From Candidatus Omnitrophota bacterium (GTDB lineage Bacteria > Omnitrophota > Omnitrophia > Omnitrophales > Aquincolibacteriaceae), in contig JAYTHE010000002.1 of the NCBI GenBank assembly GCA_043732705.1, positions 56,385-120,384 on the forward strand: a DNA stretch of 64,000 nt, given 5' to 3'. The notes under the pieces were generated by a model. The model saw only the letters and a list, made by a program, of their open reading frames with translations, ran no database searches and was not told the DNA's origin. The position numbers and the translations under genes were made by a program. Shown piece by piece: positions 40,437-57,014 of the stretch. Every line of letters begins with the position of its first letter. The stretch's first letter is position 1.

Positions 40437-41105
40437 TTGAAAAGAGCTTCTCGAATTTTATTCGGCGTATTTTTATTGAGCATCTTTGCTTTTGTGCCAT
40501 TAGGCGGGTGCGAAGAATTTAAAAAAGAACCGTCCGACTTTTACACATTAGATGTTTCCCACAAATATCAACCGCATTTTCAAAGTCCTCAAAAATATAC
40601 AGCGGAGGACATGCGATTTTTAGCACACGAAGTTTTAATCAAGATGAAGCAAATATTAGGGGTCGAATTTGACCGCGGAAATCCGGCTCATGTCCGTGAG
40701 CTTGCCGAATTTTTTAAATTACTTCCCAATGAGGAGCTGGATATTTATTCCACGCCTATGTCGGATTCTGACATTTTGTATTTTGTGGATTCCGAACAAT
40801 TTGGGACCAAAGAATTGTATCCTCAAAACGCGCAGCAGCTTGTCGTGCGGTTTTATTGGGAGGGGCTGGCCCGCATAGCTGCCGAACATTACAAATTAAG
40901 AGTGGTGGATAACAAATCCGCTGTGAAGCCGCGCATGTCGCGCGGTAAGGTAAGCGATATGGCAACTACAGCGATGTTCGAGAAGCGGCCCGGCATAAGT
41001 ATTGCGCAGGCTGCCAAAGAAAATAAGGAACGATATGATTTTGGCAGGCTCATTAAACATCTTCACGAGAAAGGATTGCCTCGCGCCAACAAACGAAGCA
41101 GTTAG
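40437..41105 (+). CDS. Hypothetical lipoprotein
   Basis: Lipobox PLGGC after a signal peptide. Confidence 0.45.
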   Translation: MKRASRILFGVFLLSIFAFVPLGGCEEFKKEPSDFYTLDVSHKYQPHFQSPQKYTAEDMRFLAHEVLIKMKQILGVEFDRGNPAHVRELAEFFKLLPNEELDIYSTPMSDSDILYFVDSEQFGTKELYPQNAQQLVVRFYWEGLARIAAEHYKLRVVDNKSAVKPRMSRGKVSDMATTAMFEKRPGISIAQAAKENKERYDFGRLIKHLHEKGLPRANKRSS

Positions 41106-41260: not shown

Positions 41261-44200
41261 TTGATTTTTGAAAAAGATCAGTTACGTTTCCTTAAAGTTG
41301 TTTCATCTAAGAAAAAGGAATCGATCGTGCTATCCCAAAATCATTTTTTTTATTCTGCGCGTTTGCGCCGTGTTATAGCTTTTTTTCTTGTGATAGTGTT
41401 TCTTTTTTCTGACTACGCTTTTCTTCCTGCGAGCTTTGCACAAACCCTGCGTGCAACGGGTGCTGGCAATTTGTCCGCTTCGAATTTCGTTCCAATGAAA
41501 CTGGCTTTTTCTGAATCGTGGGGAAAGGTTGACGAAACGTTTAAGGGAGCTTCACAGAAAACATTAATTTTGATTCAGGACGCGCATGATTCGCTTGAAG
41601 CTCAGGAAAATATTGCGCATCTTGTTGATTATTTTGTCCGCGAGAAAAAAGTTCATACCGTTTACGAAGAAGGGCTAGAAGGCAAAGTTCCCACCGACGA
41701 TTATTTCGGTTTTATCCGCAACTCGGATGTGAAGCGCGAAGTCGCTTATTATTTAATGGATCATTTGCGTGTCGGTGGTGCTGAGTATGCGCATATTAAT
41801 CGTCACCGGCCGTTTAATTTGGTCGGAATCGATAATCATAAACTGCATGAACAAAACTTGTTCTGGTTTCGACGTGTTTTTCAAAATAGCGATGTTATTC
41901 AAAACGACTTGCGATTGCTTAAAAAACGCCTTCAAAAAATCGCCGATAAAAAATTAAACAAAAAAATAAAGAGCTGGCTCAAAGGTTATGAGCGTTATCA
42001 TCGCGGCGAAATGGCTTTTTATGATTTTCTGCGCCCCAGTGTCGATGCGCTCGGCAAGCAGCCTTTTCCGTCCAAACAGTTTCCTCAAATTCAAATCCTG
42101 CGGGAACCTTCCGATTTAGCGCAAATCAAAACACCGGAACTTTTTAAAGAAGTCGAAAGCTTTGATTCCTGGATGCTCGAAGCTTTGGGCCATAATGCTG
42201 ATGAAAAAGAACTTTTACGGCTTTTTCGACAAGTTATGCTTTTCGAAAAACTCAGCACTTTTAAGCTGACGCCCCATGAATTTAAATGGGCGCAGGAAGT
42301 TCTCAGGTCATTCAACACGCAAGCCGCCGCCAAATTTATCCACCGTGCATCTAATCAATCCGTTGTGCTTTCGACGGTTTGGGAATCTTATTTGCGCGAC
42401 GCATTACAGTTTTATGAAACGGCCTATGCGCGTGATGAGGCCGTCGAGCAAAATCTTGCGAACGGTTTTTTGAATGACAAAGAAAATGAAGCCGTGCTCG
42501 TCTTCGGCGGATTTCATAAAGATGCCATCAAAAATATTTTGCAGAGGCACGGGATTTCTTATGCTGTAATCAGTCCTAAGATCTCGGGAGTTTCGAAAAG
42601 GCATCAGGCCTATTATCAGGAAATTATGGCACATGGATATTTGAAATCAGAACTTCCGCAAGCCTTGGCGCGTGCGACGGTTCAAAACCATGTTTTTCAA
42701 ATTACTTCCCGCGAAGGTTTTCCCGCATATTTACGAAGAGTTCTGCCCCCACGTCTGTCTTCTTTGCTGCCTTTGACAATCGCACGTTCTGAACAACGCG
42801 ATAACGGTATCGAACGTGTGGACTACCCTGACTCCCATTTGCGCATTGCCATGGCGCAAATCAATACAACCGTCGGAGATTTTGAAGGCAATTATCGTAA
42901 AGCTTTAGCATCGTATGAAAAGGCGCGCACTCAAGATGTGGATGTGCTTGTTCTGCCCGAGCTAACTATTTCCGGTTATTTGCCGGAAGACTTGGTCAAT
43001 AAAGAACATTTTGTGCGCCAAAACAAAGAAACATTGCATTTGTTTGCGAAACAGATTCAAGACATGACGGTGGTGATCGGATTTATTGATTCCGATGATC
43101 AGGGTAATTTGTATAACGCCGCCGCGGTGATCTCAGACGGTGAAGTCAAACATGTTTATCATAAATGGGATTTGCCGAATTACGGCGTGTTTGACGAAAA
43201 ACGAAATTTTACCGGCAAAGAAACAACGATTTTCACTCCCGGACACACGCCATTTGTTTTTACGGTTAAAGGTTTGCCGGTGGGCCTTAATATTTGTGAA
43301 GACATATGGAATGACCGCGGTCGCGGACTCAATGTGTATGAAGAAGAAGCCAAGTTGGGCGCAAAATTACAAATCAATATTTCAGCGTCTCCTTTTCATG
43401 AACAAAAACTGGATCAAGTCCGCTTAGATTTGTTGCGAAAAAGAGCCGCGCAAACAGGTTCCATTATTCTTTATGCGAATTTGGTGGGGGGACAAGATGA
43501 GGTTGTTTTCGACGGTGGCAGCATGATTATGACTCCGCAAGGAGAGTTGACTGCGCGTGGAGCCCAGTTTCAAGAAGACCTCGTTATTACGGACGTTGAT
43601 TTAAGCCGTTCGAATAATCAGCCTCATGCGGATGCGCTTTTCCCCGCAATGAGCCCGTCGCAAAACAGCAGCCGTAAGGTTCCGCTCGAAAAACGTGAAT
43701 TAACACCGCCGCTTTCGGCAATTGCGGAAGATTACGAAGCGATGGTTCTCGCGACGCGTGATTATTTAAGAAAAAGTGGTTTCAAAACAGTGGTTTTGGG
43801 TTTGAGTGGCGGAATTGATTCGGCGGTTGTCGCTGCCATTGCACGTGATGCGATTGGTGCTGAAAATGTGAAAGGCATTTCGATGCCGACACAATTTAAT
43901 AGTGAAGGCACGAAAAGCGATGCGCGCATAACCGCCGAAAAGCTTGGGATTAAATTTGAAGAGAATCCGATTCAGAACTTGTTTAGCCTGTTTCTAAGCA
44001 CGGTCGAAGGTAACGCCAAGACAGGCTTTGTGGCGACATTTTATGCCTTTTTACGCTGGTTTTCTATGATGCCCAAATTTGGACATTGGTTTCAACGTTT
44101 TTCCCTCGTCGGTTTTTCAGCGTTCGGAATTTCAGAAGAAAATATGCAAGCTCGCATTCGGGGCATGATGTTAATGCGTGAATCCAACAAAAATGGCTCG

Positions 44201-47200
44201 TTGCTTTTGACCACCGGCAATAAAAGTGAAACGGCAGTGGGTTATGCAACTTTATATGGAGATATGGCAGGCGGATTTGCACCGATTAAAGATGCCTATA
44301 AAACTAGAGTATTTGATTTTGCACGGTATGTGAATCAGCGCGATGCTAGAGAAGTGATCCCTGTGAGCACAATTGACAGACCGCCTTCCGCGGAATTAAA
44401 CAAAGACCAAAAAGATGAAGATGCGCTGCCGCCTTATGTGACGGAGCTTGATCCGATGCTCAAGCTTTATCTTGAAAAAAATGCCCCGGCTGAAGATTTG
44501 GCAGTTGTTGCCGGAATGAAACAGGCTTTAACAGAGAAGGGCATTTATTCGGAGGAGAAACATCGGCTTTTTGCGGACGAAGTTTTCACAACGGGCAATT
44601 TGATCCAGGCGCTTGCGAAACTTCGGGCGCAGCTTGGCAACCCCAATGACGAGCCCTTTTCCAGTCTTAAGGAAAGAGCCGCAGAATTAGGCTCCAAAAA
44701 AGCGCATGATGTGATTCGCCGCGTTGATTTAAATGAATATAAACGTCGGCAGGGACCTCCGGGAGTTAAATTAACACCGACCGCCTTTGGTAAAGACCGG
44801 CGCATGCCCATCGTGAATACTTATCGTCAAAGAGGGGTTGAAGATTTTTTACGCCGTGATGGCGCACCCCGAGCTGTAACAGTTAAAAAAGAAGACGCCG
44901 CGCTGATTGTCGGAAAATTCGCGCCTTTTCATAACGGCCATGAATCTTTGATTAGGCAGGCATTAAATGAAAATGAAAAAGTAGTTGTTTTGGTTTATGA
45001 CCATCCCGAATTAATTAATATTTCCGCCACTGAAATGGCTGAAATGATTACAAAAATTATTAACAACGAGCGTTTGACGGTCATTCCTGTTTATGGCGCC
45101 CCTCCGGCCGGAGATTCCCGGGAAGCACGTCAAGCGCATCTTGATTTCATGAAACGGCAATTGCCGCCCAATATTCATGTTACCAAGGTTTATAACAATG
45201 AATGGTATGGCAAAGATATTGCGAATGGATTAAATGCGGAAATTATTCAACCCGATCCTAAAAGAACGCAGATTGGTATTTCTGCAAAAAAAATCCGTCA
45301 AGATCCCACTTCGCTTGCGGAAGCCCATGTGCATCCGGATATGTGGGAGCGATTGCAAAAATCAGGAACTAAAATGTGGGCGGTTCCGGATCAGGAAAGG
45401 CTTTACCGTGAAGGCATGGATGCAAGTTTTGTTGATCGGTCCATGGACGAAGCTGAGAAGGTAAGAATCCGCGCAAGTATTGAGGCTAAAAATCCAGGCT
45501 ATGCAGATAAGGCTAAGCTTTTCGCACCCGTCAAATGGGATCCGGCAACGTACGAAAGTGAAAACCTTCCTTCAGTTGTTGGCAATCTGAGAGATCACGC
45601 CACATTCAGCCAGCAACGCGGTGTGCGTATTTTGGATTTATTAATCCGCGATCCTAAAAAAGGCTGGGCCATTCCGAAAGTTCTTGAGCCTTTCCGCGAA
45701 GCGATTCAAATGGCGGTGGAACATGAACGCGCGATCAACCCTGATTTTGATGAATTGCATGTTTACGTGACGATTGACCAAAAGAAAGTCGAGCCGGATA
45801 AATTTCAACGCCGTCCCGGCGGGCATGCCGATGCTTTTCCGACGAAAGAAACCAACAACATTTCATCGGAGCTTGTTTTGGATGACACCTACATCATGTC
45901 GGACCGGCCTGAAATTTCGACATGGCTCATGCCCGGACCTTTTCCGGTCAAGGATGTTGATTTGAATGATGATGAAGCCGTTTTGAAGCGTTTTGATGAG
46001 GTCGGACAAAAGCAAATCGCAGCCGGCAAAGCAAAGCAAATGCCCGCGTTTCAAATGATTCGCATGACGCCCTATGACATTCATGCGGTTGCGCAAAATA
46101 AGACAGGCCATCCGATTGAACGTACCTTTATCAAGGTGCAATTCAGCCGCGACCGTTTGAACATGATGGGCAATACCTTGAACCGCGTTGAAGATAAAAA
46201 GGGCACGCCTGTTTTTGATTATTCGGATTGGACATGGATTCCCCGCAAACAGGGGGTGCGTAATAACCGTAACAGTATTCTTGGTTGGAATCGCGCGGAT
46301 GCGGATCAATTTCTTGAAGTGGATCCTTCCAAAATTGATTTTAATCAGGGTAAAGTGGCTTTTGATTGGGCTGAGCCTGAAGTTTTATTTATTAAAAAAA
46401 TTGAGGGCGTGCATGCCGAGCCCGCGATTGAGGGCGAAGTTTTAGAGACAAAGGTCAATGGGGATATCGTCACTTTCAATATCGCGCAAAAAGGCGACCG
46501 AAAAATTACCACGAGCCAGGGCGATCAATATTTTTTAAGCGATGAAAAATTTAGAGACCGTTACTTTGCGGATGAAGGCAAAGACGGTTTTTATCAGCCG
46601 CAAGCGCAGGTTGCGCGAGCTATTCGTATTATAAAACCGATTCGTATTCGCTCTTCTTGGGGTGCCTGGCAATATTTGTCTGTGGGCAGTGTTCTCGTTA
46701 GTACACACGCCGATCATGCTTACGGCATTCATAAAGATAATTATGAAGCGTCTTATCGCCGCACCGATGCTGAAGGCAATTTTCTGAGTGAACAATTATT
46801 GAATCCTGATCAGGTTGTTTCAGCAGATGTTTCGCCGGCTCTTAAAGGACAAATCGAGAGTCTTAATCCTGCTCATTCAACAGATAATCTTTTTGGTGTG
46901 GCCAAATGGGATGTCGCCGGATTCAATGAACCGCATTTACCGGTAGTCATCAGCGACACACTTTCAAATCGTGACAATGTCAGCTATTTTGAAGGTGACA
47001 CAGGTATACGCTACTTGGACCTTTTAATTTATGCCCCCGGCCAGGGGTGGGCCATTCCAAAAAATTTGGAACCGTTTATAGAACCGATTCGTTTAGCTTA
47101 TGAAGCAGAACGTTTAGCGAACCCTGCTTTTAAAGAACGGTTCATTCATATTACCGTTGATCAAAAAACAGTGCCAATAGACAAGCCCGGGCGCAGACCA

Positions 47201-50200
47201 GGATTGCATGCGGATGCCGGTTTGAAAGATGCGAATGGCCGTTCAATCGATGTGCTGGCTGAAAATCGCAGAGAGATTGAAGCGATGCGCGGCAAGTCGT
47301 CGGATCATGCGTATGTTTTTTATGATAAATTACCGACGGAATTTTATCCCGGGCCTTTTCATTTGGAACAAGCCGCTGACGGCGCCACTTTTGAATCTTT
47401 GGTTCCTCCCGGACAAACGCCCGTTACTTATCCGAAATTTACTTTGCTGCGGCTGAATGCTTTTGATGTACACACATCCACAATCAATCAAACCGGTGAG
47501 TCACAAAAACGGACATTTTTTAAACTTCAATTTACCGAACGCCTTTTGGACCGCCCAAATAATTCAATCAATTCCTTTTTGAATTATGACCGTGCCCGCG
47601 CGGTTTCAGTACAGCGCTCCGAACAGCGTTCAAACATGAGCCGTGAGGATGCGCTCGCGAATATTGCGAGATTGAATGCTGCGCGTCCAAAGGGTTACCC
47701 GGAAAGAAGCTTGAATCTTACCAAGCCTTATACTGCGCCGATTGTTTATAAAAATGCGCGTTCGAAGAAAAATCCTTATGGTTGGGCGCATCCTGATTTA
47801 AGCGACTCAAAAATTTCCGCGGCTGATAGACACCGTGCAATTGAAACATTGCGTGCCCATATTATGCGTTTTGATGAGCAGTTTGATCTAAGAACCGATT
47901 TTGATCCGGAAACGGGTTTGCCGGTTAACGATGCTGAAACCGGCTTGAACGGCAGAGGATCACTTGGGCGACATGGACCCAATCCGGCTGAAGATGCGAT
48001 TTTTTTGCGTTATAACAAAGCGGGTGAGTTGGAGGTTTTGGTGATTGAAAGAAATGACGGCGGCGGCCGGGCTTTGCCGGGCGGCATGATCAAGGAAGGG
48101 GAAGAAAATTTAGTCGGTGTGACATCAACTCGAGAATTAGAAGAAGAAACTAAGCTTCAAATTGATATGACGAAAGGTGTGGTTGTTTTTCGCGGGAAAG
48201 CGAATGAATGGCGCGATACCAATGATGCATGGATGGTGACACGAGGTGTGGCAGTTTTGCTTTCATGGGAAGAGTCCCAGCATTTAAAACCGCACGCAGG
48301 AAGTGACGCCAAGAAAAAGACTGCGCGCTTTGTTAAAGTTACCGACAATATGGGGCTTTACGCGCATCATCAAATTAATGTGAATAATGCCGTTGCGATG
48401 GTGAGAAATGGACAGCTTCAAACTTCAGATGAGGCTATCAACAAAAATATACCGGCTGTAGATATCACCATTACAGACATTGAAGAGGCCTATGAATTAT
48501 TCAAGGCGGGCAAAGGAAAAGTGTCAGAAAGTTACGATTTAATTGTGCCCGAAACTCCGCATGGCGGGGGCTATGCCGTTTTCGCGGGGCTTGAAGAAAC
48601 ACTTTCTTCAATTCGCCGCCGTCGATTTACACCTGATCACATCGCGGCTTTGCGCAAAATGGAAACTTTTTCAGAAGACTTTTTAAAATTTTTACAGCAA
48701 TTTACATTTGAAGGCGATTTGGATGCTTTGCCGGAAGGATCGGTTGTTTCACCGAAAATTCCTTTAATGCGTATTCAAGCCACGCCCGTGGAAATGGCGC
48801 TTTTAAAAGGTTTGATTCAAAACCGAATTGGTTTTAGTACGAATATTGCGACAAAGACTGCCCGAATTACTCAAGCGGCTAATGGTGATTTCGTGACTCC
48901 CGAGGCAATGGAACGTTTGCGCAAGAAAGACGGACTCGCTCCCGAGCAAGTCAAAAAAATACGCCCCGTTTCGGATTTTGGTCAGCGTCGAGGGCAGGGT
49001 AAAGGTTCGCTTGTCGCATCCCTCGCGGCAATTATTGGCGGAGCTATTTCGACTTCGTTTGTAAAAGCGGCAAAGCAGTTTTTCTTGAATGCAAGCGGAA
49101 CGATGGCGCATCTTTTTATCTCGTCTTTTCCGGCAAAATTAGAAATTATGGCTTTTCGTATTTGGGGAAAAATTTATCCGAAGACCTCTATTTTCCTGCT
49201 CGACACCTATGATTCAATTGAAGCGACAAAAAAAGCAATTATTGTCGCAAAAGAAATGGTCTTAAACGGAGGGCAGCTTTTTGGCGTTCGCTTAGATAGC
49301 GGCGATTTAGTGGTGCTATCGCGCACGATTCGAAAAATGCTGGATGATGCCGACCTTCACTATGTCAAAATTTTCGCGACGGATGATTTGGATGAATTTA
49401 AAATTACCGACATTTTATCAAAAGGCGCGCGCATTGACGGATTTGGCGTTGGCACGAATTTAATCACGGGCGGTAAACAAGCTACCTTAAAGTTGGAGTT
49501 TGTTCCATCTCATGGCGAGCGTTATTGGCGCGCGCGGCATCAAGGGCAATTTACGCGTTATGTGCGCACTGACAGAGACCGCGTGGCGCATGCGAGCTAT
49601 GGTGAAGAAATGACGGAGTTGCTCCGCCCCTTTTGGCGCAAGGGCCAACGTGTTCAAGATGCTAAAAAGCCCTGGAAAGCGCATGAGCGTGCAATTGATG
49701 AGCTTAGGCAATTTAAGCCCGAAAATAAAAAATTAGAAAACGCAGCCACGATTCCCGTTGAAGACCAAAAAAATCCTTTGACGATTAACCCCGAAACAGA
49801 TGCCATTATTTCGATTGACGCCACAAAAGCATTTATGAAAAAGGGTGGTTTGCCGGTGAAAGATGGCGACGATGTTGTTGCGCCCATCAAATTGCTCTTA
49901 CGGCGCTTTCCGAAAAATCGGCGTTTTGCGGCTGTAGACAAACATCCGCGTGGACATATATCTTGGGCAAGCTCTTTTGTCGGAACTCCACCCATGACTT
50001 ATTTAACTTATGAAGAGGTTGAAAAGTGGACGGATGCAAATCATAAAATTGGGCCGAATGCTAAATTTGACTTAGCGCAGCTTAAAGAAAAACTTAAAAG
50101 AATTGGCGGGCAAATGCTATGGCCCGATCACGCTGGAGAAAACACTCCGGAGTCGGAGCTGCATCCTGATTTTCTGGAAAGCGATTTTGAATATATTGAA

Positions 50201-53200
50201 GTTAAGGGTATGGATCCCGCGACAGATTCTTACAGTGCCTTTTTTGATAATGACGGCAACCCCACGAAATTGGCGCAAGAGCTTAGAAAGCGGGGAATTA
50301 AGCGAGTTTTTGTTATGGGCTTGGCCTATGATTATTGCGTGGGCTGGTCAGCCGAAGGCGCGCATAAATTAGGATTTGAAGTTGTTGTTGTAAAAGATGG
50401 TACGCGCCCGGTTGGTTTTCCTGCGGATAGTATTTCAAAAATGGATGCATCTTTTGCGGCAAAAGAAATTCCGGTTGTTTCGACTCAGGATGTTCTTGAT
50501 GCCAACGATTATCGTGGTGTCAACATGGCCAAGATGCTTGAAACCCCGATTGCGCACCCTGATTTTCCGGAAGAAGAAGATAGCTCCGCGCTTGAAGAAG
50601 ATATGTACCACATTACGATGGGCCAAACGCTGTTTCTTGAAAACTTACATAATCAGCCGGCGACTTTTGATTATTTTTATCGTGCTGCGCCTTATGGTCA
50701 GGATCACATCACGGTTTCAGGTTTGCGTTTCCTTCTTGAAGAATTAAAAAAATTCCGTTTTACTGAAGAGCAAATTCAATATCTAGCGAACATTCACAAG
50801 TTGAGCAGTGCTTCGGAGCTTGATCCAAAATATGTTGCTTACTTGCGAAATTATCGCTTCCAAGGTGATATTTCAGGCTTGCCTGAAGGCAGTGTGGCTT
50901 ATCCGAATGAACCGATTTTGACGGTCAAAGGCACGCTTTTTGACACCATGATCATTGAGACATTGATTCTGAAGACAATGAATTTTGGTGGGTTGATTTC
51001 AACTTGGGCAAGTTTGGAAAGACAACAAAAAGGAAATAATGCTCGTTTGATTGCGACCGGTCTTGAGGGCGCGCATGGAATTGCTCATAGCAGAGCAGCC
51101 TATGCGGCCTTTATTGCGGGCATCGACGCGACAGACGATTTTGATGCCGCAATGCGTTATGGAATTCCGTTAGCTGGCCCTCGCCAAAAGGGAACAAGAT
51201 TGGGCGCGGATCTTTTGACCGGTGGACCGAAATCTTCTATGGGCGGGGTTTATAAATTAGTTCATATAAATAAACGTGGTGTTGTTAAGTTGAGTGAGAA
51301 CGCGGCTAAAACATCGTTGCCCGGGAATAAAGTTATTGTTGAAGTTGTGGACAAAACCACGGGAAAAGTATTGCGTCGGTTGAAAAAGTTACAAAGTGAA
51401 AAGCTTGAGTTGGCCGCGAATGAAAAAATTAGAGTTCGATCCATTCCGCTTGTACACAAGGGCGAAGCCATTTATTCCGTACCAGATCCTTTTGAGGTTC
51501 GTGCTTATCGCGACGCGGATGCGGCGCGCCTCAAAGACATTAAAGCGTCGGAAGTTTCTCCGCGCATGGCGGCTTTCCAGAAAAAGCTCATTGATCGCAT
51601 TCATGGCCGATCTGAGCAGCGCAAGCCGCATCCGAATGTTCAGGAATCCGAATTATCAGAGGGCGAGGTAGATCAACTTTATGCTTTCTCAAAATCAATG
51701 ATGGAGCAAGCGCGAAGTATTTTGGATGAGTTTATTGTGCGGGGGTTTGGTCAATCAAAAAAAGATGATGGTAGTGTCTTGACCGATATTGACCCTGCAA
51801 TTCAACAGCGTGTTTTAGAAATGGTGCGTGAAAGATTCCCGGCGCATTATGTGCTCGCGGAAGAAAAATTGACTTCGGCTGAAGCGAGAGAGAATGACGC
51901 TTTAAAAAACTCCGATTATAAGTGGGTAGTTGATCCAATTGACGGGTCTCGAATTCTCGGAGAGGGTAATAATTATTACGCTATCTCGATCGCCCTGTAT
52001 TTCAAGGGAAAACCGGTGCTAGGATTAGTTTATTCGCCTTTCTTGGGCGGTTTTTTAGAAACTTCGCAGAATGAACCGCATGTCACCTTAAATCATATGC
52101 CGATTGTGCTTGATCCGAAGGCGGCTTTGCCTAAAACCCTCAAAACGATTATTCCGGGCACGACTCCCTACTCTGAGAATTTTAGAGAGGCCCTATTGGA
52201 TGATACTAGGCTGCGCCAAGCAGGCGTTCAAAAGATTGAAACACAAGTGGTGATCCGTTCCGCAGTGGTTAACCTGGCCAATATTTTACGTAGCCGTTAC
52301 GACTTATTTGCCAATATCGGCGAAAAGGAAATGAATATTTGGGATATTGCCGCGGCAGGCTATCTTCTGCAAAAAGCTGGGCGCAGCATGCTTGTTTCGC
52401 GTGGCGGTAAGTGGGAAAATGCTCTCGAAGTTTTTAGACATGATTTGACTTCGACGCAAACTATGAGTGGTTATCATTTTATAGCTGGATCCGACGCTGT
52501 TTTGGCCCATGTGCAAGCCATTTTGAGTCCGAGCGGTACACCCGTGAACAGTAGCCAATTACCCAGAGATGTCGAAACTGTTTCAAACCGAGTGATCTCG
52601 CACGATAAGCCCTTCGCGGCGGTATTCGATTTTCATGGAACCTTGGTAGAAACTACATGGAAAAATGAATTTGCGCTTGCGTATGACCAGGTGAAAAAAG
52701 TTGGTATGGCTGCCGCGCTTGCATGGGTTGAAAAAAACGCGCATCAAGATTTACGAGTTTTTATGCCCGCGCAGCTTGGAATGAAACAGTCTGAATTTTT
52801 AAAAATTTTGGCGGTAGCACAGGAAGAGTCTCGTGAAAACTATTTTCCGCGACTGCTTGACGGCGCGCGTGAAATGGTTCAGGCGCTTTTGGAAAGAAAT
52901 GTGCCTGTTTTTATTCTTACGGGGTCGCCGAGTGAGGTTGTTTTAAAACAGCTTGAGCAAGCGGGCCTGCTTGATTTAATTCCTAAAGAAAACATTATTA
53001 CTCGAGATCGCATTGAGCAATCCACCGGTAAGGTTCAAGGATCGCTCAAAGATGCGGCGATTTCAAGTCTTCAAACGCAGCTTCCTAATCACCGCTTTTT
53101 ACATTTTAGCGATTCACCGGGTGGATTCGAATCAATTCACCAAATCGAGGGTTTTAATTTTGGGCGCGTGGATGGCGAAGGCCAGGAAAGGGTCGCTAAG

Positions 53201-54952
53201 CGGGAAAGGATGGTTGGAAGTCAGGCTGATTTCTTGTTGAACGCTGGGTTTAAGCATTGGCGAGAGCTAATTGATTTTCTGAAAATTAAAACAGCGTTGC
53301 AATACCAAGCTCCCGTGCTTGCGACGACCAGTGATGAGGCCGTTGAAGTCCCGTTTATTTTGCCGGCAAAGCGGAATGGTGGATTGGCCCTCCACATTTT
53401 TGTCAGTGACGATCTGAAGGAGGTTACTTATTCGGAAGTGCTTGACGATTCTCAAGTTTATGGCAAAGAGGGTGCTGTAGATTATACGAAACTTAAACTT
53501 AAAAAAATCGCTACGTTTCCAAGCTCTTACCTTATTTCTCCATCCAAACAAATTGCGGTACTTTCGCCGCCGGAAGTTTTAGACGCGATCGGGCGTGTTT
53601 GGCCCCAACATAAACGCTATACGACTTATCGTGGCGTCACGACATCGTGGGATCAAGAGGAAGACATTAATGTTTGGTCATTCAACATTGATAGCGGTTA
53701 CCTGCTTAAGGTTTTGCATGAAGCCGGGTTGCTCAACGAGACTGTCAAAAAAGCCGCTGAAGTGGGCGTGGGCGGCGGACAGGTTTCCGCCGATATTGTC
53801 GCAGCGCTGCCTCATTTGGAGGAAATGACGTTCTCCGATATTAGTTTGTATGCTTTGCGCGCCGCAAAGGCAAACATTTTGCCGTGGATTAAGAAGAAAC
53901 TCATACGGCTTAGGACTTTTCTTGGAAAAGGTATTAAAGCCTTTCCGAAAGATTTAGATTTGTTGATTGTCAATCCGCCTTATATTCCCACATCGCCATT
54001 TGAAAAAAGACCCACGAACGATCCTTATCGAGGTACCGGGTTGATTCATGAAGTGATTCAAGACGGTTTTAGGCATTTAAATCCTGCGAATCCTAAGGCA
54101 GCGGTTGTGATGAATGTAAGCTCTTTGGCCGCACAGGATTTTGAGCGTTATCAGCAAGAGTTTTCAGCGCAAGTTGAAATTTCGCCGATTGGGGAGCCTT
54201 TACTTGTGCCGCTTAAAATTCGTACGATTTCAGAAGAGTGGAAGCGGTGGTTGGTTGAAAATGGAATGCTTGAAAGACGCCCCACGACCAAGCTAGGCGA
54301 AGAGGAATATTGGCACCGGATTCAAGCCTATGTCATTCGCCCCAAGGCGAATGTGCGTTCGGAACAACGTTTAGCAGATAGTCAGCCTGTAACTATTTTT
54401 CAATCCAAGCCTGTTCGTGCTTCTGCAGTTGAAGGGGTTTTTGTAGCTCCTATTACAGTGCTTGTTGATGCGCGTGACTTTGCCGCTTTTAATTCGGAAC
54501 AGAAGCAAGAGTTTTTTAAGTTGTTCGAAAAATATCAAGGGCAACAGCATTTGAAATTTATCTTTGAAAATATAGCAGCTTTAAACGAACAAGATCCTGT
54601 CGCTGCTGAATTACGGGATTTTGCAGGGCAATATCCACGTTTGATTGAAACGCGCAATCAATCCCTAGATAGGTTGGCACTTCCGAAAACAGCGGTGATT
54701 ATGGTTTCAAAAGAGGGGCTGGATAACGCGGCTCGGGAAAGTATGATCCGAAGCAGTGTGCCCCAGCACTTGATCGTTTCATATAAAAGACAAAATATCT
54801 CCGCAGGGTTAATTACAGCGGCACTTTTATTGTTTCAATCGGAACGGTATCAAGCTTATCAAAACCGGTCACTTTCAGAAGTTCCGAGTGATTTACAAGC
54901 TCAAGTATTTGAGATTTTGGAAAGCTTTGTTTATATTGGGCGTTCGGCTTAA
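41261..54952 (+). CDS. Giant 4563 aa multidomain protein fusing the NAD biosynthesis, salvage and turnover enzymes, with an N-terminal TM anchor
   Basis: A single uninterrupted 13,692 nt ORF. Recognisable domains are listed as separate 'other' features below. Confidence 0.85.
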   Translation: MIFEKDQLRFLKVVSSKKKESIVLSQNHFFYSARLRRVIAFFLVIVFLFSDYAFLPASFAQTLRATGAGNLSASNFVPMKLAFSESWGKVDETFKGASQKTLILIQDAHDSLEAQENIAHLVDYFVREKKVHTVYEEGLEGKVPTDDYFGFIRNSDVKREVAYYLMDHLRVGGAEYAHINRHRPFNLVGIDNHKLHEQNLFWFRRVFQNSDVIQNDLRLLKKRLQKIADKKLNKKIKSWLKGYERYHRGEMAFYDFLRPSVDALGKQPFPSKQFPQIQILREPSDLAQIKTPELFKEVESFDSWMLEALGHNADEKELLRLFRQVMLFEKLSTFKLTPHEFKWAQEVLRSFNTQAAAKFIHRASNQSVVLSTVWESYLRDALQFYETAYARDEAVEQNLANGFLNDKENEAVLVFGGFHKDAIKNILQRHGISYAVISPKISGVSKRHQAYYQEIMAHGYLKSELPQALARATVQNHVFQITSREGFPAYLRRVLPPRLSSLLPLTIARSEQRDNGIERVDYPDSHLRIAMAQINTTVGDFEGNYRKALASYEKARTQDVDVLVLPELTISGYLPEDLVNKEHFVRQNKETLHLFAKQIQDMTVVIGFIDSDDQGNLYNAAAVISDGEVKHVYHKWDLPNYGVFDEKRNFTGKETTIFTPGHTPFVFTVKGLPVGLNICEDIWNDRGRGLNVYEEEAKLGAKLQINISASPFHEQKLDQVRLDLLRKRAAQTGSIILYANLVGGQDEVVFDGGSMIMTPQGELTARGAQFQEDLVITDVDLSRSNNQPHADALFPAMSPSQNSSRKVPLEKRELTPPLSAIAEDYEAMVLATRDYLRKSGFKTVVLGLSGGIDSAVVAAIARDAIGAENVKGISMPTQFNSEGTKSDARITAEKLGIKFEENPIQNLFSLFLSTVEGNAKTGFVATFYAFLRWFSMMPKFGHWFQRFSLVGFSAFGISEENMQARIRGMMLMRESNKNGSLLLTTGNKSETAVGYATLYGDMAGGFAPIKDAYKTRVFDFARYVNQRDAREVIPVSTIDRPPSAELNKDQKDEDALPPYVTELDPMLKLYLEKNAPAEDLAVVAGMKQALTEKGIYSEEKHRLFADEVFTTGNLIQALAKLRAQLGNPNDEPFSSLKERAAELGSKKAHDVIRRVDLNEYKRRQGPPGVKLTPTAFGKDRRMPIVNTYRQRGVEDFLRRDGAPRAVTVKKEDAALIVGKFAPFHNGHESLIRQALNENEKVVVLVYDHPELINISATEMAEMITKIINNERLTVIPVYGAPPAGDSREARQAHLDFMKRQLPPNIHVTKVYNNEWYGKDIANGLNAEIIQPDPKRTQIGISAKKIRQDPTSLAEAHVHPDMWERLQKSGTKMWAVPDQERLYREGMDASFVDRSMDEAEKVRIRASIEAKNPGYADKAKLFAPVKWDPATYESENLPSVVGNLRDHATFSQQRGVRILDLLIRDPKKGWAIPKVLEPFREAIQMAVEHERAINPDFDELHVYVTIDQKKVEPDKFQRRPGGHADAFPTKETNNISSELVLDDTYIMSDRPEISTWLMPGPFPVKDVDLNDDEAVLKRFDEVGQKQIAAGKAKQMPAFQMIRMTPYDIHAVAQNKTGHPIERTFIKVQFSRDRLNMMGNTLNRVEDKKGTPVFDYSDWTWIPRKQGVRNNRNSILGWNRADADQFLEVDPSKIDFNQGKVAFDWAEPEVLFIKKIEGVHAEPAIEGEVLETKVNGDIVTFNIAQKGDRKITTSQGDQYFLSDEKFRDRYFADEGKDGFYQPQAQVARAIRIIKPIRIRSSWGAWQYLSVGSVLVSTHADHAYGIHKDNYEASYRRTDAEGNFLSEQLLNPDQVVSADVSPALKGQIESLNPAHSTDNLFGVAKWDVAGFNEPHLPVVISDTLSNRDNVSYFEGDTGIRYLDLLIYAPGQGWAIPKNLEPFIEPIRLAYEAERLANPAFKERFIHITVDQKTVPIDKPGRRPGLHADAGLKDANGRSIDVLAENRREIEAMRGKSSDHAYVFYDKLPTEFYPGPFHLEQAADGATFESLVPPGQTPVTYPKFTLLRLNAFDVHTSTINQTGESQKRTFFKLQFTERLLDRPNNSINSFLNYDRARAVSVQRSEQRSNMSREDALANIARLNAARPKGYPERSLNLTKPYTAPIVYKNARSKKNPYGWAHPDLSDSKISAADRHRAIETLRAHIMRFDEQFDLRTDFDPETGLPVNDAETGLNGRGSLGRHGPNPAEDAIFLRYNKAGELEVLVIERNDGGGRALPGGMIKEGEENLVGVTSTRELEEETKLQIDMTKGVVVFRGKANEWRDTNDAWMVTRGVAVLLSWEESQHLKPHAGSDAKKKTARFVKVTDNMGLYAHHQINVNNAVAMVRNGQLQTSDEAINKNIPAVDITITDIEEAYELFKAGKGKVSESYDLIVPETPHGGGYAVFAGLEETLSSIRRRRFTPDHIAALRKMETFSEDFLKFLQQFTFEGDLDALPEGSVVSPKIPLMRIQATPVEMALLKGLIQNRIGFSTNIATKTARITQAANGDFVTPEAMERLRKKDGLAPEQVKKIRPVSDFGQRRGQGKGSLVASLAAIIGGAISTSFVKAAKQFFLNASGTMAHLFISSFPAKLEIMAFRIWGKIYPKTSIFLLDTYDSIEATKKAIIVAKEMVLNGGQLFGVRLDSGDLVVLSRTIRKMLDDADLHYVKIFATDDLDEFKITDILSKGARIDGFGVGTNLITGGKQATLKLEFVPSHGERYWRARHQGQFTRYVRTDRDRVAHASYGEEMTELLRPFWRKGQRVQDAKKPWKAHERAIDELRQFKPENKKLENAATIPVEDQKNPLTINPETDAIISIDATKAFMKKGGLPVKDGDDVVAPIKLLLRRFPKNRRFAAVDKHPRGHISWASSFVGTPPMTYLTYEEVEKWTDANHKIGPNAKFDLAQLKEKLKRIGGQMLWPDHAGENTPESELHPDFLESDFEYIEVKGMDPATDSYSAFFDNDGNPTKLAQELRKRGIKRVFVMGLAYDYCVGWSAEGAHKLGFEVVVVKDGTRPVGFPADSISKMDASFAAKEIPVVSTQDVLDANDYRGVNMAKMLETPIAHPDFPEEEDSSALEEDMYHITMGQTLFLENLHNQPATFDYFYRAAPYGQDHITVSGLRFLLEELKKFRFTEEQIQYLANIHKLSSASELDPKYVAYLRNYRFQGDISGLPEGSVAYPNEPILTVKGTLFDTMIIETLILKTMNFGGLISTWASLERQQKGNNARLIATGLEGAHGIAHSRAAYAAFIAGIDATDDFDAAMRYGIPLAGPRQKGTRLGADLLTGGPKSSMGGVYKLVHINKRGVVKLSENAAKTSLPGNKVIVEVVDKTTGKVLRRLKKLQSEKLELAANEKIRVRSIPLVHKGEAIYSVPDPFEVRAYRDADAARLKDIKASEVSPRMAAFQKKLIDRIHGRSEQRKPHPNVQESELSEGEVDQLYAFSKSMMEQARSILDEFIVRGFGQSKKDDGSVLTDIDPAIQQRVLEMVRERFPAHYVLAEEKLTSAEARENDALKNSDYKWVVDPIDGSRILGEGNNYYAISIALYFKGKPVLGLVYSPFLGGFLETSQNEPHVTLNHMPIVLDPKAALPKTLKTIIPGTTPYSENFREALLDDTRLRQAGVQKIETQVVIRSAVVNLANILRSRYDLFANIGEKEMNIWDIAAAGYLLQKAGRSMLVSRGGKWENALEVFRHDLTSTQTMSGYHFIAGSDAVLAHVQAILSPSGTPVNSSQLPRDVETVSNRVISHDKPFAAVFDFHGTLVETTWKNEFALAYDQVKKVGMAAALAWVEKNAHQDLRVFMPAQLGMKQSEFLKILAVAQEESRENYFPRLLDGAREMVQALLERNVPVFILTGSPSEVVLKQLEQAGLLDLIPKENIITRDRIEQSTGKVQGSLKDAAISSLQTQLPNHRFLHFSDSPGGFESIHQIEGFNFGRVDGEGQERVAKRERMVGSQADFLLNAGFKHWRELIDFLKIKTALQYQAPVLATTSDEAVEVPFILPAKRNGGLALHIFVSDDLKEVTYSEVLDDSQVYGKEGAVDYTKLKLKKIATFPSSYLISPSKQIAVLSPPEVLDAIGRVWPQHKRYTTYRGVTTSWDQEEDINVWSFNIDSGYLLKVLHEAGLLNETVKKAAEVGVGGGQVSADIVAALPHLEEMTFSDISLYALRAAKANILPWIKKKLIRLRTFLGKGIKAFPKDLDLLIVNPPYIPTSPFEKRPTNDPYRGTGLIHEVIQDGFRHLNPANPKAAVVMNVSSLAAQDFERYQQEFSAQVEISPIGEPLLVPLKIRTISEEWKRWLVENGMLERRPTTKLGEEEYWHRIQAYVIRPKANVRSEQRLADSQPVTIFQSKPVRASAVEGVFVAPITVLVDARDFAAFNSEQKQEFFKLFEKYQGQQHLKFIFENIAALNEQDPVAAELRDFAGQYPRLIETRNQSLDRLALPKTAVIMVSKEGLDNAARESMIRSSVPQHLIVSYKRQNISAGLITAALLLFQSERYQAYQNRSLSEVPSDLQAQVFEILESFVYIGRSA
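41366..42800 (+). other. Giant-ORF N-terminus: a TM/signal-anchor helix (VIAFFLVIVFLFSDYAFLPASFA) followed by a roughly 450 aa unassigned domain
   Basis: Hydrophobic helix at aa 36-60. No confident family match. Confidence 0.4.
42830..44520 (+). other. Giant-ORF domain: glutamine-dependent NAD+ synthetase (NadE) as a CN-hydrolase/nitrilase domain plus an NAD-synthase PP-loop domain
   Basis: CN-hydrolase motifs LVLPELTISGY and the catalytic Cys context LNICEDIW. An NAD synthase SGGIDS PP-loop and TTGNKSETAVGYATLYGD follow. Confidence 0.8.
44880..45400 (+). other. Giant-ORF domain: NMN/NaMN adenylyltransferase (NadM/NadR-type nucleotidyltransferase)
   Basis: The (H/T)xGH motif appears as GKFAPFHNGHESL, together with the ISAKKIR-type second motif. 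Confidence 0.7.
45615..47560 (+). other. Giant-ORF: a duplicated unassigned domain of about 180 aa (copies at 45615-46165 and 47000-47560) separated by a beta-rich spacer
   Basis: Paralogous segments: G(V/I)R(I/Y)LDLLI..P..GWAIPK.LEPF and ..TVDQK.V..DK..RRPG.HADA. I recognise no family. Confidence 0.4.
47940..48340 (+). other. Giant-ORF domain: Nudix hydrolase, ADP-ribose pyrophosphatase-like
   Basis: GRHGPNPAEDAIF and the Nudix box ALPGGMIKEGEENLVGVTSTRELEEETKL. Confidence 0.7.
48500..49510 (+). other. Giant-ORF domain: type II phosphoribosyltransferase of the NAPRT/NAMPT superfamily, copy 1
   Basis: LLDTYDSIEA, GVRLDSGDL and GFGVGTNL motifs. Confidence 0.65.
49795..50500 (+). other. Giant-ORF domain: nicotinamidase / isochorismatase-like cysteine hydrolase (PncA)
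   Basis: IISIDATKAF carries the Asp, a Lys lies in the mid region, and VFVMGLAYDYCV carries the catalytic Cys. Confidence 0.7.
50590..51560 (+). other. Giant-ORF domain: nicotinate phosphoribosyltransferase-like (PncB-type), copy 2
   Basis: An N-terminal MYHITMGQ box of LTM type, a central PRTase barrel and a C-terminal VKLSENAAKTSLPGNKV tail typical of NAPRTases. Confidence 0.6.
51700..52520 (+). other. Giant-ORF domain: inositol-monophosphatase/CysQ-family phosphatase, a candidate NADP or PAP phosphatase
   Basis: DGSVLTDIDP, WVVDPIDGS and WDIAAAGYLL IMPase motifs. Confidence 0.65.
52600..53260 (+). other. Giant-ORF domain: HAD-superfamily phosphatase
   Basis: Motif I FDFHGTLVET (DxDGT type) and motif III ILTGSP. 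Confidence 0.6.
53560..54350 (+). other. Giant-ORF domain: SAM-dependent methyltransferase with an NPPY motif (HemK/N6-amino MTase class)
   Basis: A glycine-rich VGVGGGQVS SAM loop and LLIVNPPYIPT. Confidence 0.6.
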
Positions 54953-54972: not shown

Positions 54973-56079
54973 TTAGGGCAGGCGTTTTGACCCGGCTGTG
55001 TCAAGTATTTGGCAAATGGAAGCCTTTGTAAATTCCTTCCCGAAAACGCGGTGCCACACCTCGGGCGATTCCATAATTAAGTAAGTGGTTACACCGGGAA
55101 GATGCTTTTCGAGCATCTCGACCAAGCCTTTATAGAGTTCGAGGCGGCGGTGTTTGAAATAACGCAATTTTCCGTCCATGCCGTTGACCCATTGTCCGTA
55201 AGGTAATTTTGATTTCGGAAAACGGTCCTGCATTTTCTTTTTGAGATCCGGCATCATGCGCAAGGAGCCGATTGAAATCCAGGCAATTTTATCGGCCGGC
55301 ACTGCCGCTGCGATTTTCTGAACGGTGATTTCGTATTCTATTTCCCAATTTTCAAAATCAATCATCGGGTCAAAATGAAATCCGACGCGGTAGCCCGGAA
55401 TTTTAGCGATTTTGGATGCGGCTTCCAATCTCTCCGCGATTGTGGCGCATTTATGCTCTTCTTCTTTCTGAATCGGTCCGGCATTAATCGACCAAGATAC
55501 GATGGTTTTACCTTCAGGTTTTAAATCCAAAAGATTTTTGATGTTATCGCTTTTCGTTTTAAATTCGAGCACGGCATTTTTTTGCTTCGCAAAAAAAGGT
55601 ACAAGAATTTTCGACGTATGCGTGATGTGATCAAGCGAAAGCGAATCGGATAAATGGCCGGTGCCGATGCGGAAAAATTTACCGGGGTGGCGATTAAGGA
55701 ATTTTTGAAGATTATCGAGAATCTCATCCATGTTTACGTAAATCATCAGCAGGGGATTGGTTAAATAAGCCTGCAGAATGCAATAGCTGCATTCCATGTC
55801 GCAGCCTTCCTGTAAATGAAGCGAGTGATAATCGCAGGAGAAATAATCTTCGGCTTCGGGAAAAGGTTTGAAGGAACGGCCCTGATCGCGCGCCAGGAAA
55901 ATTGTTTTCTTGCCTTGCACCCAGGGGTCACGATTGGTTTTTACGTTTTCATAAACATCGCTCGCGTGTTTCGCGCTTTCACGCGGGACATTCGGAAAGC
56001 GTTTCAAAATATCTTTTGTAAGCGGAAGTTTTTCTGCACCTTTTTCGATATAGATTTTGGAGGGAGTGAACAATTTCAT
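54973..56079 (-). CDS. Radical-SAM protein of the spore-photoproduct-lyase/DNA-photolyase-like family
   Basis: A CDMECSYC CxxxCxxC cluster, overall SplB-like size. The ATG at 56079 (MKLF) is preferred, in an ATGA overlap with the GT2 stop. Confidence 0.55.
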   Translation of the reverse strand: MKLFTPSKIYIEKGAEKLPLTKDILKRFPNVPRESAKHASDVYENVKTNRDPWVQGKKTIFLARDQGRSFKPFPEAEDYFSCDYHSLHLQEGCDMECSYCILQAYLTNPLLMIYVNMDEILDNLQKFLNRHPGKFFRIGTGHLSDSLSLDHITHTSKILVPFFAKQKNAVLEFKTKSDNIKNLLDLKPEGKTIVSWSINAGPIQKEEEHKCATIAERLEAASKIAKIPGYRVGFHFDPMIDFENWEIEYEITVQKIAAAVPADKIAWISIGSLRMMPDLKKKMQDRFPKSKLPYGQWVNGMDGKLRYFKHRRLELYKGLVEMLEKHLPGVTTYLIMESPEVWHRVFGKEFTKASICQILDTAGSKRLP

Positions 56080-57014
56080 TGTTCCGCTCCACGTTCCACG
56101 CCCCACGCCCCACGGTTTTCATTCGTGGCCCGTGGCTCGTGGCCCGTGGCTCCAAATAAATTTGAAAGTTCGTTAAGTAATTCCGTGTTATTTCTTTTTT
56201 TTGCCCCAAGTTCTAAGATTCTAAGTTTTTCATTGTACATGGCTTGTGCGGCTTGGGTTTGCGCAGGATTGAGAATACCGGATGCGATGGTTTCCGCCAA
56301 AGCTTTGACGCGAAAACGGTCCATGGCTTCGTATTTGTGCGAAAGCTGGTCTTCATGTCCGCCATATTTTTTTAAATATTCTTCCTCGATCAAACCGACA
56401 GGGTAGCGCGATGCGATGCGCAGCCACATTTCATAGTCTTCACAAGCGGGGTAACTTTCATTAAAGCGCCCGACTTCATCCAAAAGCGAACGATGAATCA
56501 TGACCGCGGACGGACTGATCGCGCAAAGCGGCAGGCAATGTTCAAAAATCCAGCCGCCTTCTTTTTCGTGTTTTTTCATTTTATTGACGCGTACGCCTTT
56601 ACGGATCCAAATTTCATCAGTCTGGCAGATTTTATATTCCGGATTTTTCAGAAAAAAATTCATTTGAGCCGCAAGCATATTAGGCAGCCATTCATCGTCG
56701 GAATCAAGAAATGCGATCCACTCGCCTTTGGCTTGTGCGATGCCGGTGTTGCGTGCGGCGGAAACTCCGCGATTGGCTTGGCTGATAAATTTAATGGGGA
56801 ATGCTTTAGGAGTGATGGGAGCTTCGCCAAAACCCAAATGATGTTCTTTTCCGTTCGGCAAATAAAGTTTATGGATTAGCTCTTCGGTATTATCGGTGGA
56901 GCCGTCATCGACTACGATCAGTTCAAACTCCGCGCCCTGCTGGGTCAGCACCGAATGAATAGCGCGACGCACAATGTCGGCCCGGTTATATGTGGGGATA
57001 ATCACTGAAATCAT
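56076..57014 (-). CDS. Family 2 glycosyltransferase
   Basis: VIIPTYNR...VVDDGSTD...DSDDEW GT-A motifs. Confidence 0.8.
   Translation of the reverse strand: MISVIIPTYNRADIVRRAIHSVLTQQGAEFELIVVDDGSTDNTEELIHKLYLPNGKEHHLGFGEAPITPKAFPIKFISQANRGVSAARNTGIAQAKGEWIAFLDSDDEWLPNMLAAQMNFFLKNPEYKICQTDEIWIRKGVRVNKMKKHEKEGGWIFEHCLPLCAISPSAVMIHRSLLDEVGRFNESYPACEDYEMWLRIASRYPVGLIEEEYLKKYGGHEDQLSHKYEAMDRFRVKALAETIASGILNPAQTQAAQAMYNEKLRILELGAKKRNNTELLNELSNLFGATGHEPRATNENRGAWGVERGAEQ
56087..56152. repeat. Long imperfect hairpin built from (CCACGNN)4 / (CGTGGNN)4 arms at the GT2 / radical-SAM gene junction
   Basis: In mRNA sense it reads GCCACGGGCCACGAGCCACGGGCCACG-aaugaaaac-CGUGGGGCGUGGGGCGUGGAACGUGGAGC. The 3' arm covers the SD GGAG of the downstream gene. 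Confidence 0.5.

Follow-up and report, generated by a model that had tools for sequence, protein, structure and literature searches.

The window analysed here is a stretch of 64,000 nucleotides from Candidatus Omnitrophota bacterium (contig JAYTHE010000002.1, positions 56,385 to 120,384 of the forward strand), and one of its genes encodes a giant protein that carries enzymes of nicotinamide adenine dinucleotide (NAD) metabolism, hereafter the megaprotein. The open reading frame (ORF) runs from 41261 to 54952 on the (+) strand, with 4563 codons and a stop codon and without interruption. In the public gene call the identical protein (P0001) has 4541 amino acids (aa) and begins at GTG 41327, with AAGGAA 8 nt upstream, and this GTG is the probable true start of the gene, giving 4541 aa. 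The identical protein was found on a 256 kb NCBI contig as well as on a Logan contig of 26.8 kb that was assembled separately (SRR23617244), and the GC content is flat along the whole 13.7 kb of the gene. An earlier reading made from the letters alone (the sequence-only reading) had described a single uninterrupted frame; the ORF is confirmed as a genuine gene, with no sign of a chimera.

Domains were called by Pfam and NCBIfam profile searches, and all features of the protein lie on the (+) strand. The protein opens with a hydrophobic segment (41366-41431; aa 36-57) that has RLRR just before it and the shape of a signal peptide or a type II signal anchor, in agreement with the N-terminal transmembrane helix noted earlier. 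Next comes the N-terminal domain that defines the family described below (N-domain; 41498-42670; aa ~80-470), with a predicted TIKI/TraB/ChaN/erythromycin-esterase-like fold and a large helical insertion, and then a linker with the first of four RSEQR pentapeptides (site 1; 42785-42799; aa 509-513). The block beyond this linker begins with NadE, the glutamine-dependent NAD+ synthetase (42842-44536), composed of CN_hydrolase (aa 528-783; 119 bits) and NAD_synthase (aa 826-1092; 197 bits) domains. The match to the NadE equivalog NF010588 (597.9 bits) is above the cut-off of 479, and the motifs LPELT, KWDLPNY and NICED (the nitrilase Glu, Lys and Cys contexts) and the LSGGIDS P-loop are legible. 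An aromatic-rich insertion of ~40 residues (FVATFYAFLRWFSMMPKFGHWFQRFSLVGFSAFGI; 44009-44125; aa ~917-955) interrupts the NAD synthetase domain, and the profile matches split there. NadE is followed by an HxGH (PFHNGH) nucleotidyltransferase domain that resembles NMNAT (44891-45310; aa 1211-1350); all of its top NCBIfam matches come from models of NMNAT (NadR, NadM, archaeal), with 27-37 bits against cut-offs of 127-409, and it matches phrog_3462 (NMNAT; E 5e-13). The remainder of this block consists of two copies of an unknown domain, X (45467-46183, aa 1403-1641; and X', 46841-47572, aa 1861-2104), with a weakly matching PGDYG-like beta-rich domain between them (46478-46759), and it ends at the second RSEQR (site 2; 47615-47629; aa 2119-2123).

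The third block begins with a Nudix hydrolase domain (48002-48349; aa 2248-2363; Pfam 27.7 bits against a cut-off of 21.1, no NCBIfam hit), in which the Nudix box is slightly non-canonical, with an insertion of 1-2 residues and the final Gly missing. It continues with a complete nicotinate phosphoribosyltransferase (NAPRT; 48482-49771; aa 2408-2837), a PncA-type nicotinamidase of isochorismatase fold (49802-50431; aa 2848-3057) and a second, shortened NAPRT-like domain (NAPRT'; 50573-51607; aa 3105-3449) with NAPRTase_N intact and a partial barrel. The NAPRT scores (475 bits for TIGR01513 against 297, and 488.5 for NF006695 against 469) are summed over both NAPRT-like copies. The PncA domain has nicotinamidase NF008623 as its best NCBIfam match (114.6 bits), under the cut-off of 174 and thus short of equivalog status; its Pfam Isochorismatase score is 45.3 against 27, and the D...K...C catalytic and D/H/H metal-ligand contexts are present. 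Immediately after NAPRT' lies site 3 (51608-51622; aa 3450-3454). The fourth block contains an IMPase-family phosphatase (Inositol_P, 102 bits; 51677-52417; aa 3473-3719), nearest to HisN, CysQ and SuhB and under their cut-offs, a HAD-superfamily phosphatase (52616-53128; aa 3786-3956) and a methyltransferase module (53270-54355) that has an MTS/HemK-like core with NPPY (53699-54016; aa 4147-4252). Site 4 (54356-54370; aa 4366-4370) then leads into a C-terminal domain of 193 aa with a predicted Rossmann-like alpha/beta fold (C-domain; 54371-54949), which ends in ...YIGRSA.

All four steps from nicotinamide through nicotinate, nicotinate mononucleotide (NaMN) and nicotinate adenine dinucleotide (NaAD) to NAD are therefore represented (PncA, NAPRT, the NMNAT-like domain and NadE), together with Nudix. 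Essentially all of the earlier domain assignments, and the NAD theme with them, were upheld by the profile searches, with NMNAT and PncA under the equivalog cut-offs; any roles of the IMPase, HAD and methyltransferase domains in NAD metabolism are guesses.

The sequence-only reading took the megaprotein for a one-off fusion, whereas we found that it is a member of a family. Searching with the full-length query gave 119 further proteins of 2,544-7,831 aa, which match it only at aa ~60-500 and whose remaining Pfam content is mutually unrelated. Their cargo includes epimerases, radical SAM enzymes, ROK and protein kinases, PEP-utilising enzymes, HD domains, metallophosphoesterases, GNATs, methyltransferases and helicases. 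Among P0094, P0098, P0115 and P0088 we also observed SecA domains, sigma-70 regions 2-4, the RNA polymerase alpha CTD, a pseudouridine synthase and cytidylate kinase; such housekeeping cargo would, it seems, have to be freed from a membrane tether. The named relatives are from Omnitrophota/Omnitrophica, except for one labelled Verrucomicrobiae. A GTDB scan with one genome per species gave 152 loci, and the 80 of these that were listed belong to Omnitrophota or unclassified metagenome-assembled genomes (MAGs) and, in one case, Planctomycetales, with at most 6 paralogs per genome. The family thus comprises at least 120-150 giant multi-enzyme proteins of Omnitrophota with common N- and C-terminal bookends. 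Its members follow a four-part plan, with a signal-anchor-like segment, a TIKI-type domain of ~400 aa, cargo punctuated by the motif R-[S/A]-E-x-R and a C-domain of ~190 aa. The query carries all four family signatures in the correct order. Its N-domain is 33-39% identical to those of 19 aligned members and about 32-44% identical across the search table, and it keeps every invariant column, including the signatures IQDAHDSLEAQ, EEG.EG, GGAEYAH and GGFH. No conserved neighbour gene for a dedicated protease was found upstream of ~70 family loci.

The AlphaFold model of the N-domain, built with 20 family sequences, has a mean predicted local distance difference test (pLDDT) score of 80 and shows an alpha/beta fold with a parallel beta-sheet core. 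The top five Foldseek neighbours are EreC and Bcr135, with weak scores, and ChaN (PF04187, Tiki superfamily) is weakly matched by 3 of 20 members (best E 0.016), the query itself having no Pfam match in this domain. A PDB sequence profile search with the N-domain gave nothing meaningful. The residues D107-A-H109, E136-E137, E175 and G-G-F-H419 are invariant in all 119 N-domains compared. The His-to-Glu spacing of 28 (H109/E137) equals that of Bcr135 (H85/E113) and RRSP (H3902/E3930), an equivalence by spacing and not by structural superposition. Active members of the TIKI superfamily have a 2His/2Glu site, and they include the site-specific endopeptidases Tiki and RRSP (PMC6254334). Since this constellation is invariant despite identities of 32-44%, and since the 28-residue spacing is shared, we regard the N-domain as a probable active hydrolase of the TIKI/TraB/ChaN/erythromycin-esterase superfamily.

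The leader of the query (aa 32-57) consists of RLRR followed by VIAFFLVIVFLF.... In the leaders of 115 family proteins, the uncharged run has a median length of 19 aa, and the net charge is +3.0 before and -0.13 after it. By the positive-inside rule, this charge pattern predicts that the bulk of the proteins should cross the membrane; the topology call rests on hydropathy and the charge rule. At the opposite end, the last motif lies 165-215 residues from the C-terminus in about 70 of the 115 proteins (193 aa in the query). The C-domain is modelled as a five-stranded Rossmann-like fold (pLDDT 79), with generic structural neighbours only and no conserved catalytic residues. Ala-Ala or Ser-Ala ends 111 of 120 proteins, after a hydrophobic-[V/A]-[I/V/F]-[A/S]-x pattern (YIGRSA in the query, 54932-54949). 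This [S/A]A tail is reminiscent of an ssrA-like or C-terminal recognition tail.

The four RSEQR copies of the query (aa 509, 2119, 3450 and 4366) all stand between domain blocks. No further copy of the pentapeptide appears when the 64 kb window is translated in all six frames, and the other ORFs of the window have 0 copies of the motif in 15,286 aa. The codons differ among the four copies, which excludes a DNA-level repeat as their source and indicates selection on the peptide, not on the DNA. Across 120 proteins, RSExR was observed 816 times against ~13 expected, with L, V, M, A, I, T, S or Q at position 4, and RAExR 193 times against 17; proteins without RSExR use RAExR or RPExR (e.g., P0040 with 15 RAExR). 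The flanks of RSExR are not conserved and show only a bias to small and acidic residues. The motif-bearing linkers are likewise unconserved and rich in Ser, Ala, Pro and Glu, and site 1 lies inside a disordered linker (AlphaFold pLDDT <40). The only hits for RSELR, RSEVR and RSEMR in the searchable literature were unrelated alginate-lyase papers.

We compared motif positions with 701 cargo alignments between family members, using random placement as the comparison. The motif fell inside the aligned stretch 137 times, as compared to 656 +/- 34 at random, just upstream of the alignment start 366 times (92 at random) and just downstream of the alignment end 371 times (119 at random). These results show that the motif marks the borders of shuffled modules. 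For example, RSELR sites at aa 1374 and 2004 flank the NMNAT-X-PGDYG module of P0002, with gaps to the aligned block of 7 residues on the N-side and 0 on the C-side, while in P0274 the NAPRT-PncA-NAPRT' module stops 5 residues before an RSEVR that matches site 3 of the query. Relative to the RSELR that closes this module in P0002, the query has LSEQL (46784-46798; aa 1842-1846) ~10-20 residues to the N-terminal side of the corresponding point, and this may be a decayed RSEQR site.

Position 4 of the motif varies between lineages but is much more uniform within a protein than expected by chance (0.48 as compared to 0.22), and it is common to the paralogs of one genome, with Leu in 19 of 19 cases in JAUYMS, Ala dominant in another MAG and Gln in 4 of 4 in the query. 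Such uniformity would be expected of a site that co-evolves with its reader. As it extends across the paralogs of a genome, the comparison does not separate recognition in cis from recognition in trans.

The combination of cargo enzymes had also been thought unique. No second protein with the same full architecture was found among 5.8 billion clusters, in a search dominated by words of the N-terminal domain. In contrast to the claim of uniqueness, homologs of the Nudix-NAPRT-PncA-NAPRT' block (aa 2124-3449) that are 46-54% identical occur in P0271 to P0274. The match spans the whole block for P0271 and P0272 and most of it for P0273; for the fragment P0274 it spans NAPRT-PncA-NAPRT'. On three contigs, the next gene downstream of the NAPRT-block gene encodes another giant protein of 2,219-3,741 aa, which carries an MTS methyltransferase, NadE and an NMNAT-like domain, with HAD present in the genes of L084 and of the contig of P0271. 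These downstream proteins are 26-48% identical to the matching parts of the query (45-48% in the methyltransferase module) and have extra domains, which are a second Nudix (L084), domain X (L086) and, in some, a PRPP-synthetase-like or radical SAM domain, the PRPP-synthetase-like domain being in gene B of L086. The NAD cargo set therefore recurs on at least three other contigs, where it is divided between two adjacent giant genes and mounted on a different carrier (L084 10001-21996; L086 10001-25580; the contig of P0271). It is a conserved set and not a unique accident. The methyltransferase and the HAD phosphatase travel with the NAD enzymes and probably serve the same function, judging from this co-occurrence.

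The alternative carrier is without the TIKI-like domain and has canonical AxA signal peptides in each gene, a strongly conserved N-terminal domain of ~350 aa (WVNLSPYEKDR...PRKYFSGG) with no Pfam match, and a conserved C-terminus (GDF.G.TPVI.R..P). Only 1 copy of the motif is present in ~10,900 aa of these proteins. Since the same cargo rides without the motif on a carrier that lacks the TIKI-like domain, the motif belongs to the TIKI-like carrier and not to the cargo.

The two X copies of the query are 35% identical (E 5e-43) and share the invariant signature RRxGxHxDA...H...RTFxKxxF. Domain X has no Pfam family, and a PDB sequence profile search with it gave nothing meaningful; it matches phrog_1843, and an exhaustive HMMER search found it in 728 representative clusters (50% identity) at E <= 0.001. 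Standalone fusions exist as NMNAT-X (449 aa), NMNAT-X-PGDYG (650 aa) and NMNAT-X-PGDYG-X' (906 aa, P0122), which indicates that the second block of the query consists of NadE attached to a module that already existed. Records of jumbo, T4-like and Microbacterium phages (MG752970, MF360958, HM114315, MZ355724) list X as a hypothetical protein, and its neighbours there are hypothetical proteins or dCTPase, polynucleotide kinase and RNA ligase, with no link to NAD. Solely from its HxD...H...R pattern, X suggests a candidate site like that of 2-oxoglutarate/Fe(II) oxygenases.

Around the megaprotein gene, a spore-photoproduct-lyase-family radical SAM gene (54973-56106, (-) strand) converges on its 3' end with a gap of 20 bp. 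This gene and a GT2 gene, also on the opposite strand, intervene between the megaprotein ORF and pntAB (58440-61346). The downstream location of pntAB given in the sequence-only reading is thus correct, whereas its inclusion in the megaprotein unit is ruled out because two opposite-strand genes separate them. Directly 5' of the megaprotein are two (+) ORFs without Pfam match (37899-40409, 836 aa; 40437-41105, 222 aa), the smaller of which is also called on the independent Logan contig; neither is conserved beside other family members. Further away, a c-di-AMP riboswitch (RF00379; 6008-6140, (+); 85.5 bits against a gathering score of 38) stands directly 5' of an amino-acid-permease-family gene of 670 aa (6139-8151), and a heavy-metal efflux cluster (24874-33113, (+)) encodes a CusB/HlyD-like protein with HMBD, an AcrB/CusA-type RND pump, a P-type ATPase with HMBD and a CDF transporter.

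The closed NAD cycle on a single scaffold that the sequence-only reading had imagined is doubtful, as four RSEQR sites at module borders split the protein into five blocks, and their position at the borders points to processing rather than to a permanent scaffold. Our best explanation, to which we give about an even chance, is that the megaprotein is a membrane-targeted polyprotein in which the four RSEQR sites are cut, probably by the TIKI-like domain that it carries. The protein would be targeted to the membrane via its signal-anchor-like segment and cut by its own N-domain or by the equivalent domain of a paralog, which would make the N-domain a peptidase acting on R[S/A]ExR. Five products in a fixed 1:1 stoichiometry would result: an anchored hydrolase domain, NadE-NMNAT-X-PGDYG-X', Nudix-NAPRT-PncA-NAPRT', IMPase-HAD-methyltransferase and the C-domain. 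Together they could take nicotinamide via nicotinate, NaMN and NaAD through to NAD and clear ADP-ribose or nucleotides, so that a pathway would be encoded as a polyprotein instead of an operon. In favour of this explanation are the family-wide architecture, the enrichment of the motif at module borders, the uniformity of its position 4, the invariant N-domain residues with their TIKI-type spacing, the near absence of the motif from the alternative carrier, the disorder around site 1 and the result that no conserved neighbouring protease gene was found.

Several points weigh against this explanation. Cleavage at RSEQR is a step that we infer, and a linker motif could equally be a binding site. 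The superfamily of the N-domain also contains esterases and non-enzymes, and in the AlphaFold model the first RSEQR is not docked into the N-domain and has pLDDT <40. Four sites alone would leave very large multi-domain products of 911-1605 aa. Moreover, an export-type N-terminus is hard to reconcile with cargo that needs ATP, phosphoribosyl pyrophosphate (PRPP), glutamine, S-adenosylmethionine or Fe-S clusters, which presents a paradox. Possibly the N-terminus is a tether only, the extracytoplasmic space is energised, or the products act in another cell; the last option would fit the reported host-dependent or predatory biology of Omnitrophota.

The same border motif could instead serve an uncleaved, membrane-tethered multi-enzyme scaffold (the "NAD-ome" of the sequence-only reading), with R[S/A]ExR as a docking motif through which a bookend domain or a partner would fold or cluster the modules. 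Unconserved linkers rich in Ser, Ala, Pro and Glu are equally typical of docking motifs; the NMNAT-X-PGDYG-X' (906 aa, P0122) and Nudix-NAPRT-PncA-NAPRT' blocks have no internal motifs, so that permanent fusion of NAD enzymes evidently works; and the proteins of the alternative carrier bear the same cargo without the motif. However, the hydrolase-type catalytic constellation that is invariant in 119 of 119 N-domains would be purposeless in a pure docking model, the motif strictly co-occurs with the TIKI-like domain, and some of the cargo (sigma-70 regions, SecA domains) seems to need release. We consider such a scaffold unlikely. An artefact or a decaying locus, whether an assembly chimera or an operon that lost its stop codons and yields no functional protein, would explain why the protein database has the exact architecture only once and why one motif (LSEQL) is possibly decayed; it is very improbable in view of the identical protein in two assemblies, the 13.7 kb without a stop, the even GC, the intact catalytic motifs, the four family signatures in the right order and the homologs of each block, 26-54% identical, in like arrangement elsewhere.

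An exported effector polyprotein like MARTX shares the cleavage step with the polyprotein explanation and differs from it in location and purpose, in that the signal sequence would direct the protein out of the producing cell, the end domains would serve delivery or processing, and the modules would be freed in a host or prey cell, which offers ATP and PRPP, and would sustain or rewire its NAD pools, for example against NAD-depleting immunity. This fits the secreted or surface effector that the sequence-only reading had offered as an alternative, a candidate role that agrees with the export-type N-termini on both carrier types (the charge pattern in 115 proteins and the AxA signal peptides). 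Extracytoplasmic action is described for many members of the TIKI superfamily, one of which, RRSP, is a MARTX effector (PMC6254334). Reports describe Omnitrophota as nanobacteria, host-dependent or predatory, that bear giant surface proteins; phage relatives exist for domain X and for the NMNAT-like domain, and phages rebuild NAD to counter immunity. On the other hand, the cargo of the family looks housekeeping (sugar-nucleotide epimerases, radical SAM, kinases, pseudouridine synthase, sigma, SecA), a Pfam search of the whole protein found no translocation apparatus, RTX repeats or CPD domain, no host is known, and the topology comes from hydropathy and the charge rule only. We judge an exported effector to be a rather unlikely account, somewhat more so than the tethered scaffold. 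Extending the polyprotein explanation to the family gives a more far-reaching proposal, which we hold only tentatively and at less than even chance. Whole pathways would be encoded as self-processing polyproteins, with an N-terminal TIKI-fold protease, genome-specific R-[S/A]-E-x-R sites and motif-bounded cassettes that are shuffled between genes, and each gene would yield an equimolar set of enzymes; in its strongest form, the products would be exported, given the signal sequences on both carrier types, and the NAD set would be an effector package that keeps or restores the NAD of a host or prey.

If the motif is a processing site, these proteins would show that bacteria employ polyproteins in ordinary metabolism, a strategy described mainly for viruses and a few toxins, and would give the giant-gene field a cleavage map. 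West-Roberts et al. (2023) speculate on cleavage by C39 or S8 peptidases and state that the cleavage points are unknown (10.1101/2023.11.21.568195), and for this reason they could not split giant proteins for analysis. Hundreds of giant ORFs could then be divided into units on the basis of R[S/A]ExR in combination with the TIKI-like domain and the [S/A]A tail. Regardless of cleavage, the set of methyltransferase, HAD, NadE, NMNAT(-X), Nudix, NAPRT, PncA and NAPRT' is found on two unrelated carriers, and this recurrence makes the HemK-like methyltransferase, the HAD phosphatase and domain X candidates for a new part in NAD metabolism. That ATP-dependent cytoplasmic enzymes follow export-type leaders also poses a sharp paradox on the cell biology of host-dependent nanobacteria.

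The components of the megaprotein resemble several known systems in part. The canonical pair of nitrilase and synthetase is present in its NadE, and NMNAT and Nudix occur in one protein as in NadM-Nudix. In contrast, NadE, NadM-Nudix and NadR (HTH-NMNAT-RNK) unite 2-3 activities, while the query has at least eight NAD-related or candidate domains and its NMNAT is joined to X-PGDYG-X' and not to Nudix. The pentafunctional AROM protein likewise places consecutive steps of a pathway on one chain; unlike the query, it has no punctuation motif, protease-like domain or signal sequence. The phage pathways NARP1 and NARP2 consist of a transferase of the NAMPT/NAPRT family, NMNAT and a PRPP-synthetase-like kinase (10.1101/2024.02.11.579819), and they are similar in being compact, mobile NAD-rebuilding sets; the NMNAT-like domain and X of the query have phage relatives, and gene B of L086 has a PRPP-synthetase-like domain. 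The query differs from them in having no Adps homolog and in lying on a bacterial chromosome, not in a phage.

With picornavirus and flavivirus polyproteins, the megaprotein shares a single ORF, an embedded (putative) protease, short sites between domains and, as proposed here, equimolar products, whereas it is a cellular gene for metabolic enzymes with a putative protease of a different fold and a cleavage that we infer. In MARTX toxins, conserved ends also bracket variable, shuffled modules, which are freed by site-specific autoprocessing, and RRSP has the TIKI fold of the N-domain. The query, however, has no RTX/glycine-rich repeats, no CPD (Peptidase_C80) and no type I secretion (T1SS) signal (Pfam, E <= 0.01); its cargo is biosynthetic and not cytotoxic, and its N-terminal signal suggests Sec rather than T1SS. 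The likeness to MARTX is thus confined to function.

The closest counterparts are the giant multi-enzyme proteins of the same phylum, which also combine many unrelated enzyme Pfam families (methyltransferases, HAD, NUDIX, epimerases, radical SAM), none of them dominant, with a membrane or signal N-terminus. Such proteins have already been described: the preprint of Nielsen & Lui (2026) classifies proteins of at least 10,000 aa and names a class of "multi-enzyme metabolic cluster" in Omnitrophota (10.64898/2026.06.07.730766). The catalogued giants have at least 10,000 or more than 30,000 aa, whereas the query, at 4,541-4,563 aa, is below the Class 1 threshold and encodes a single coherent pathway. 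The text of that preprint has no word beginning with "cleav", "motif", "linker" or "polyprotein", and neither it nor the study of West-Roberts et al. appears to mention the TIKI-like N-domain, the [S/A]A-tailed C-domain or R[S/A]ExR. Giant multi-enzyme proteins of Omnitrophota are therefore an already known kind, while novelty appears to lie in the bookends, in the punctuation motif and in the conserved set of NAD cargo.

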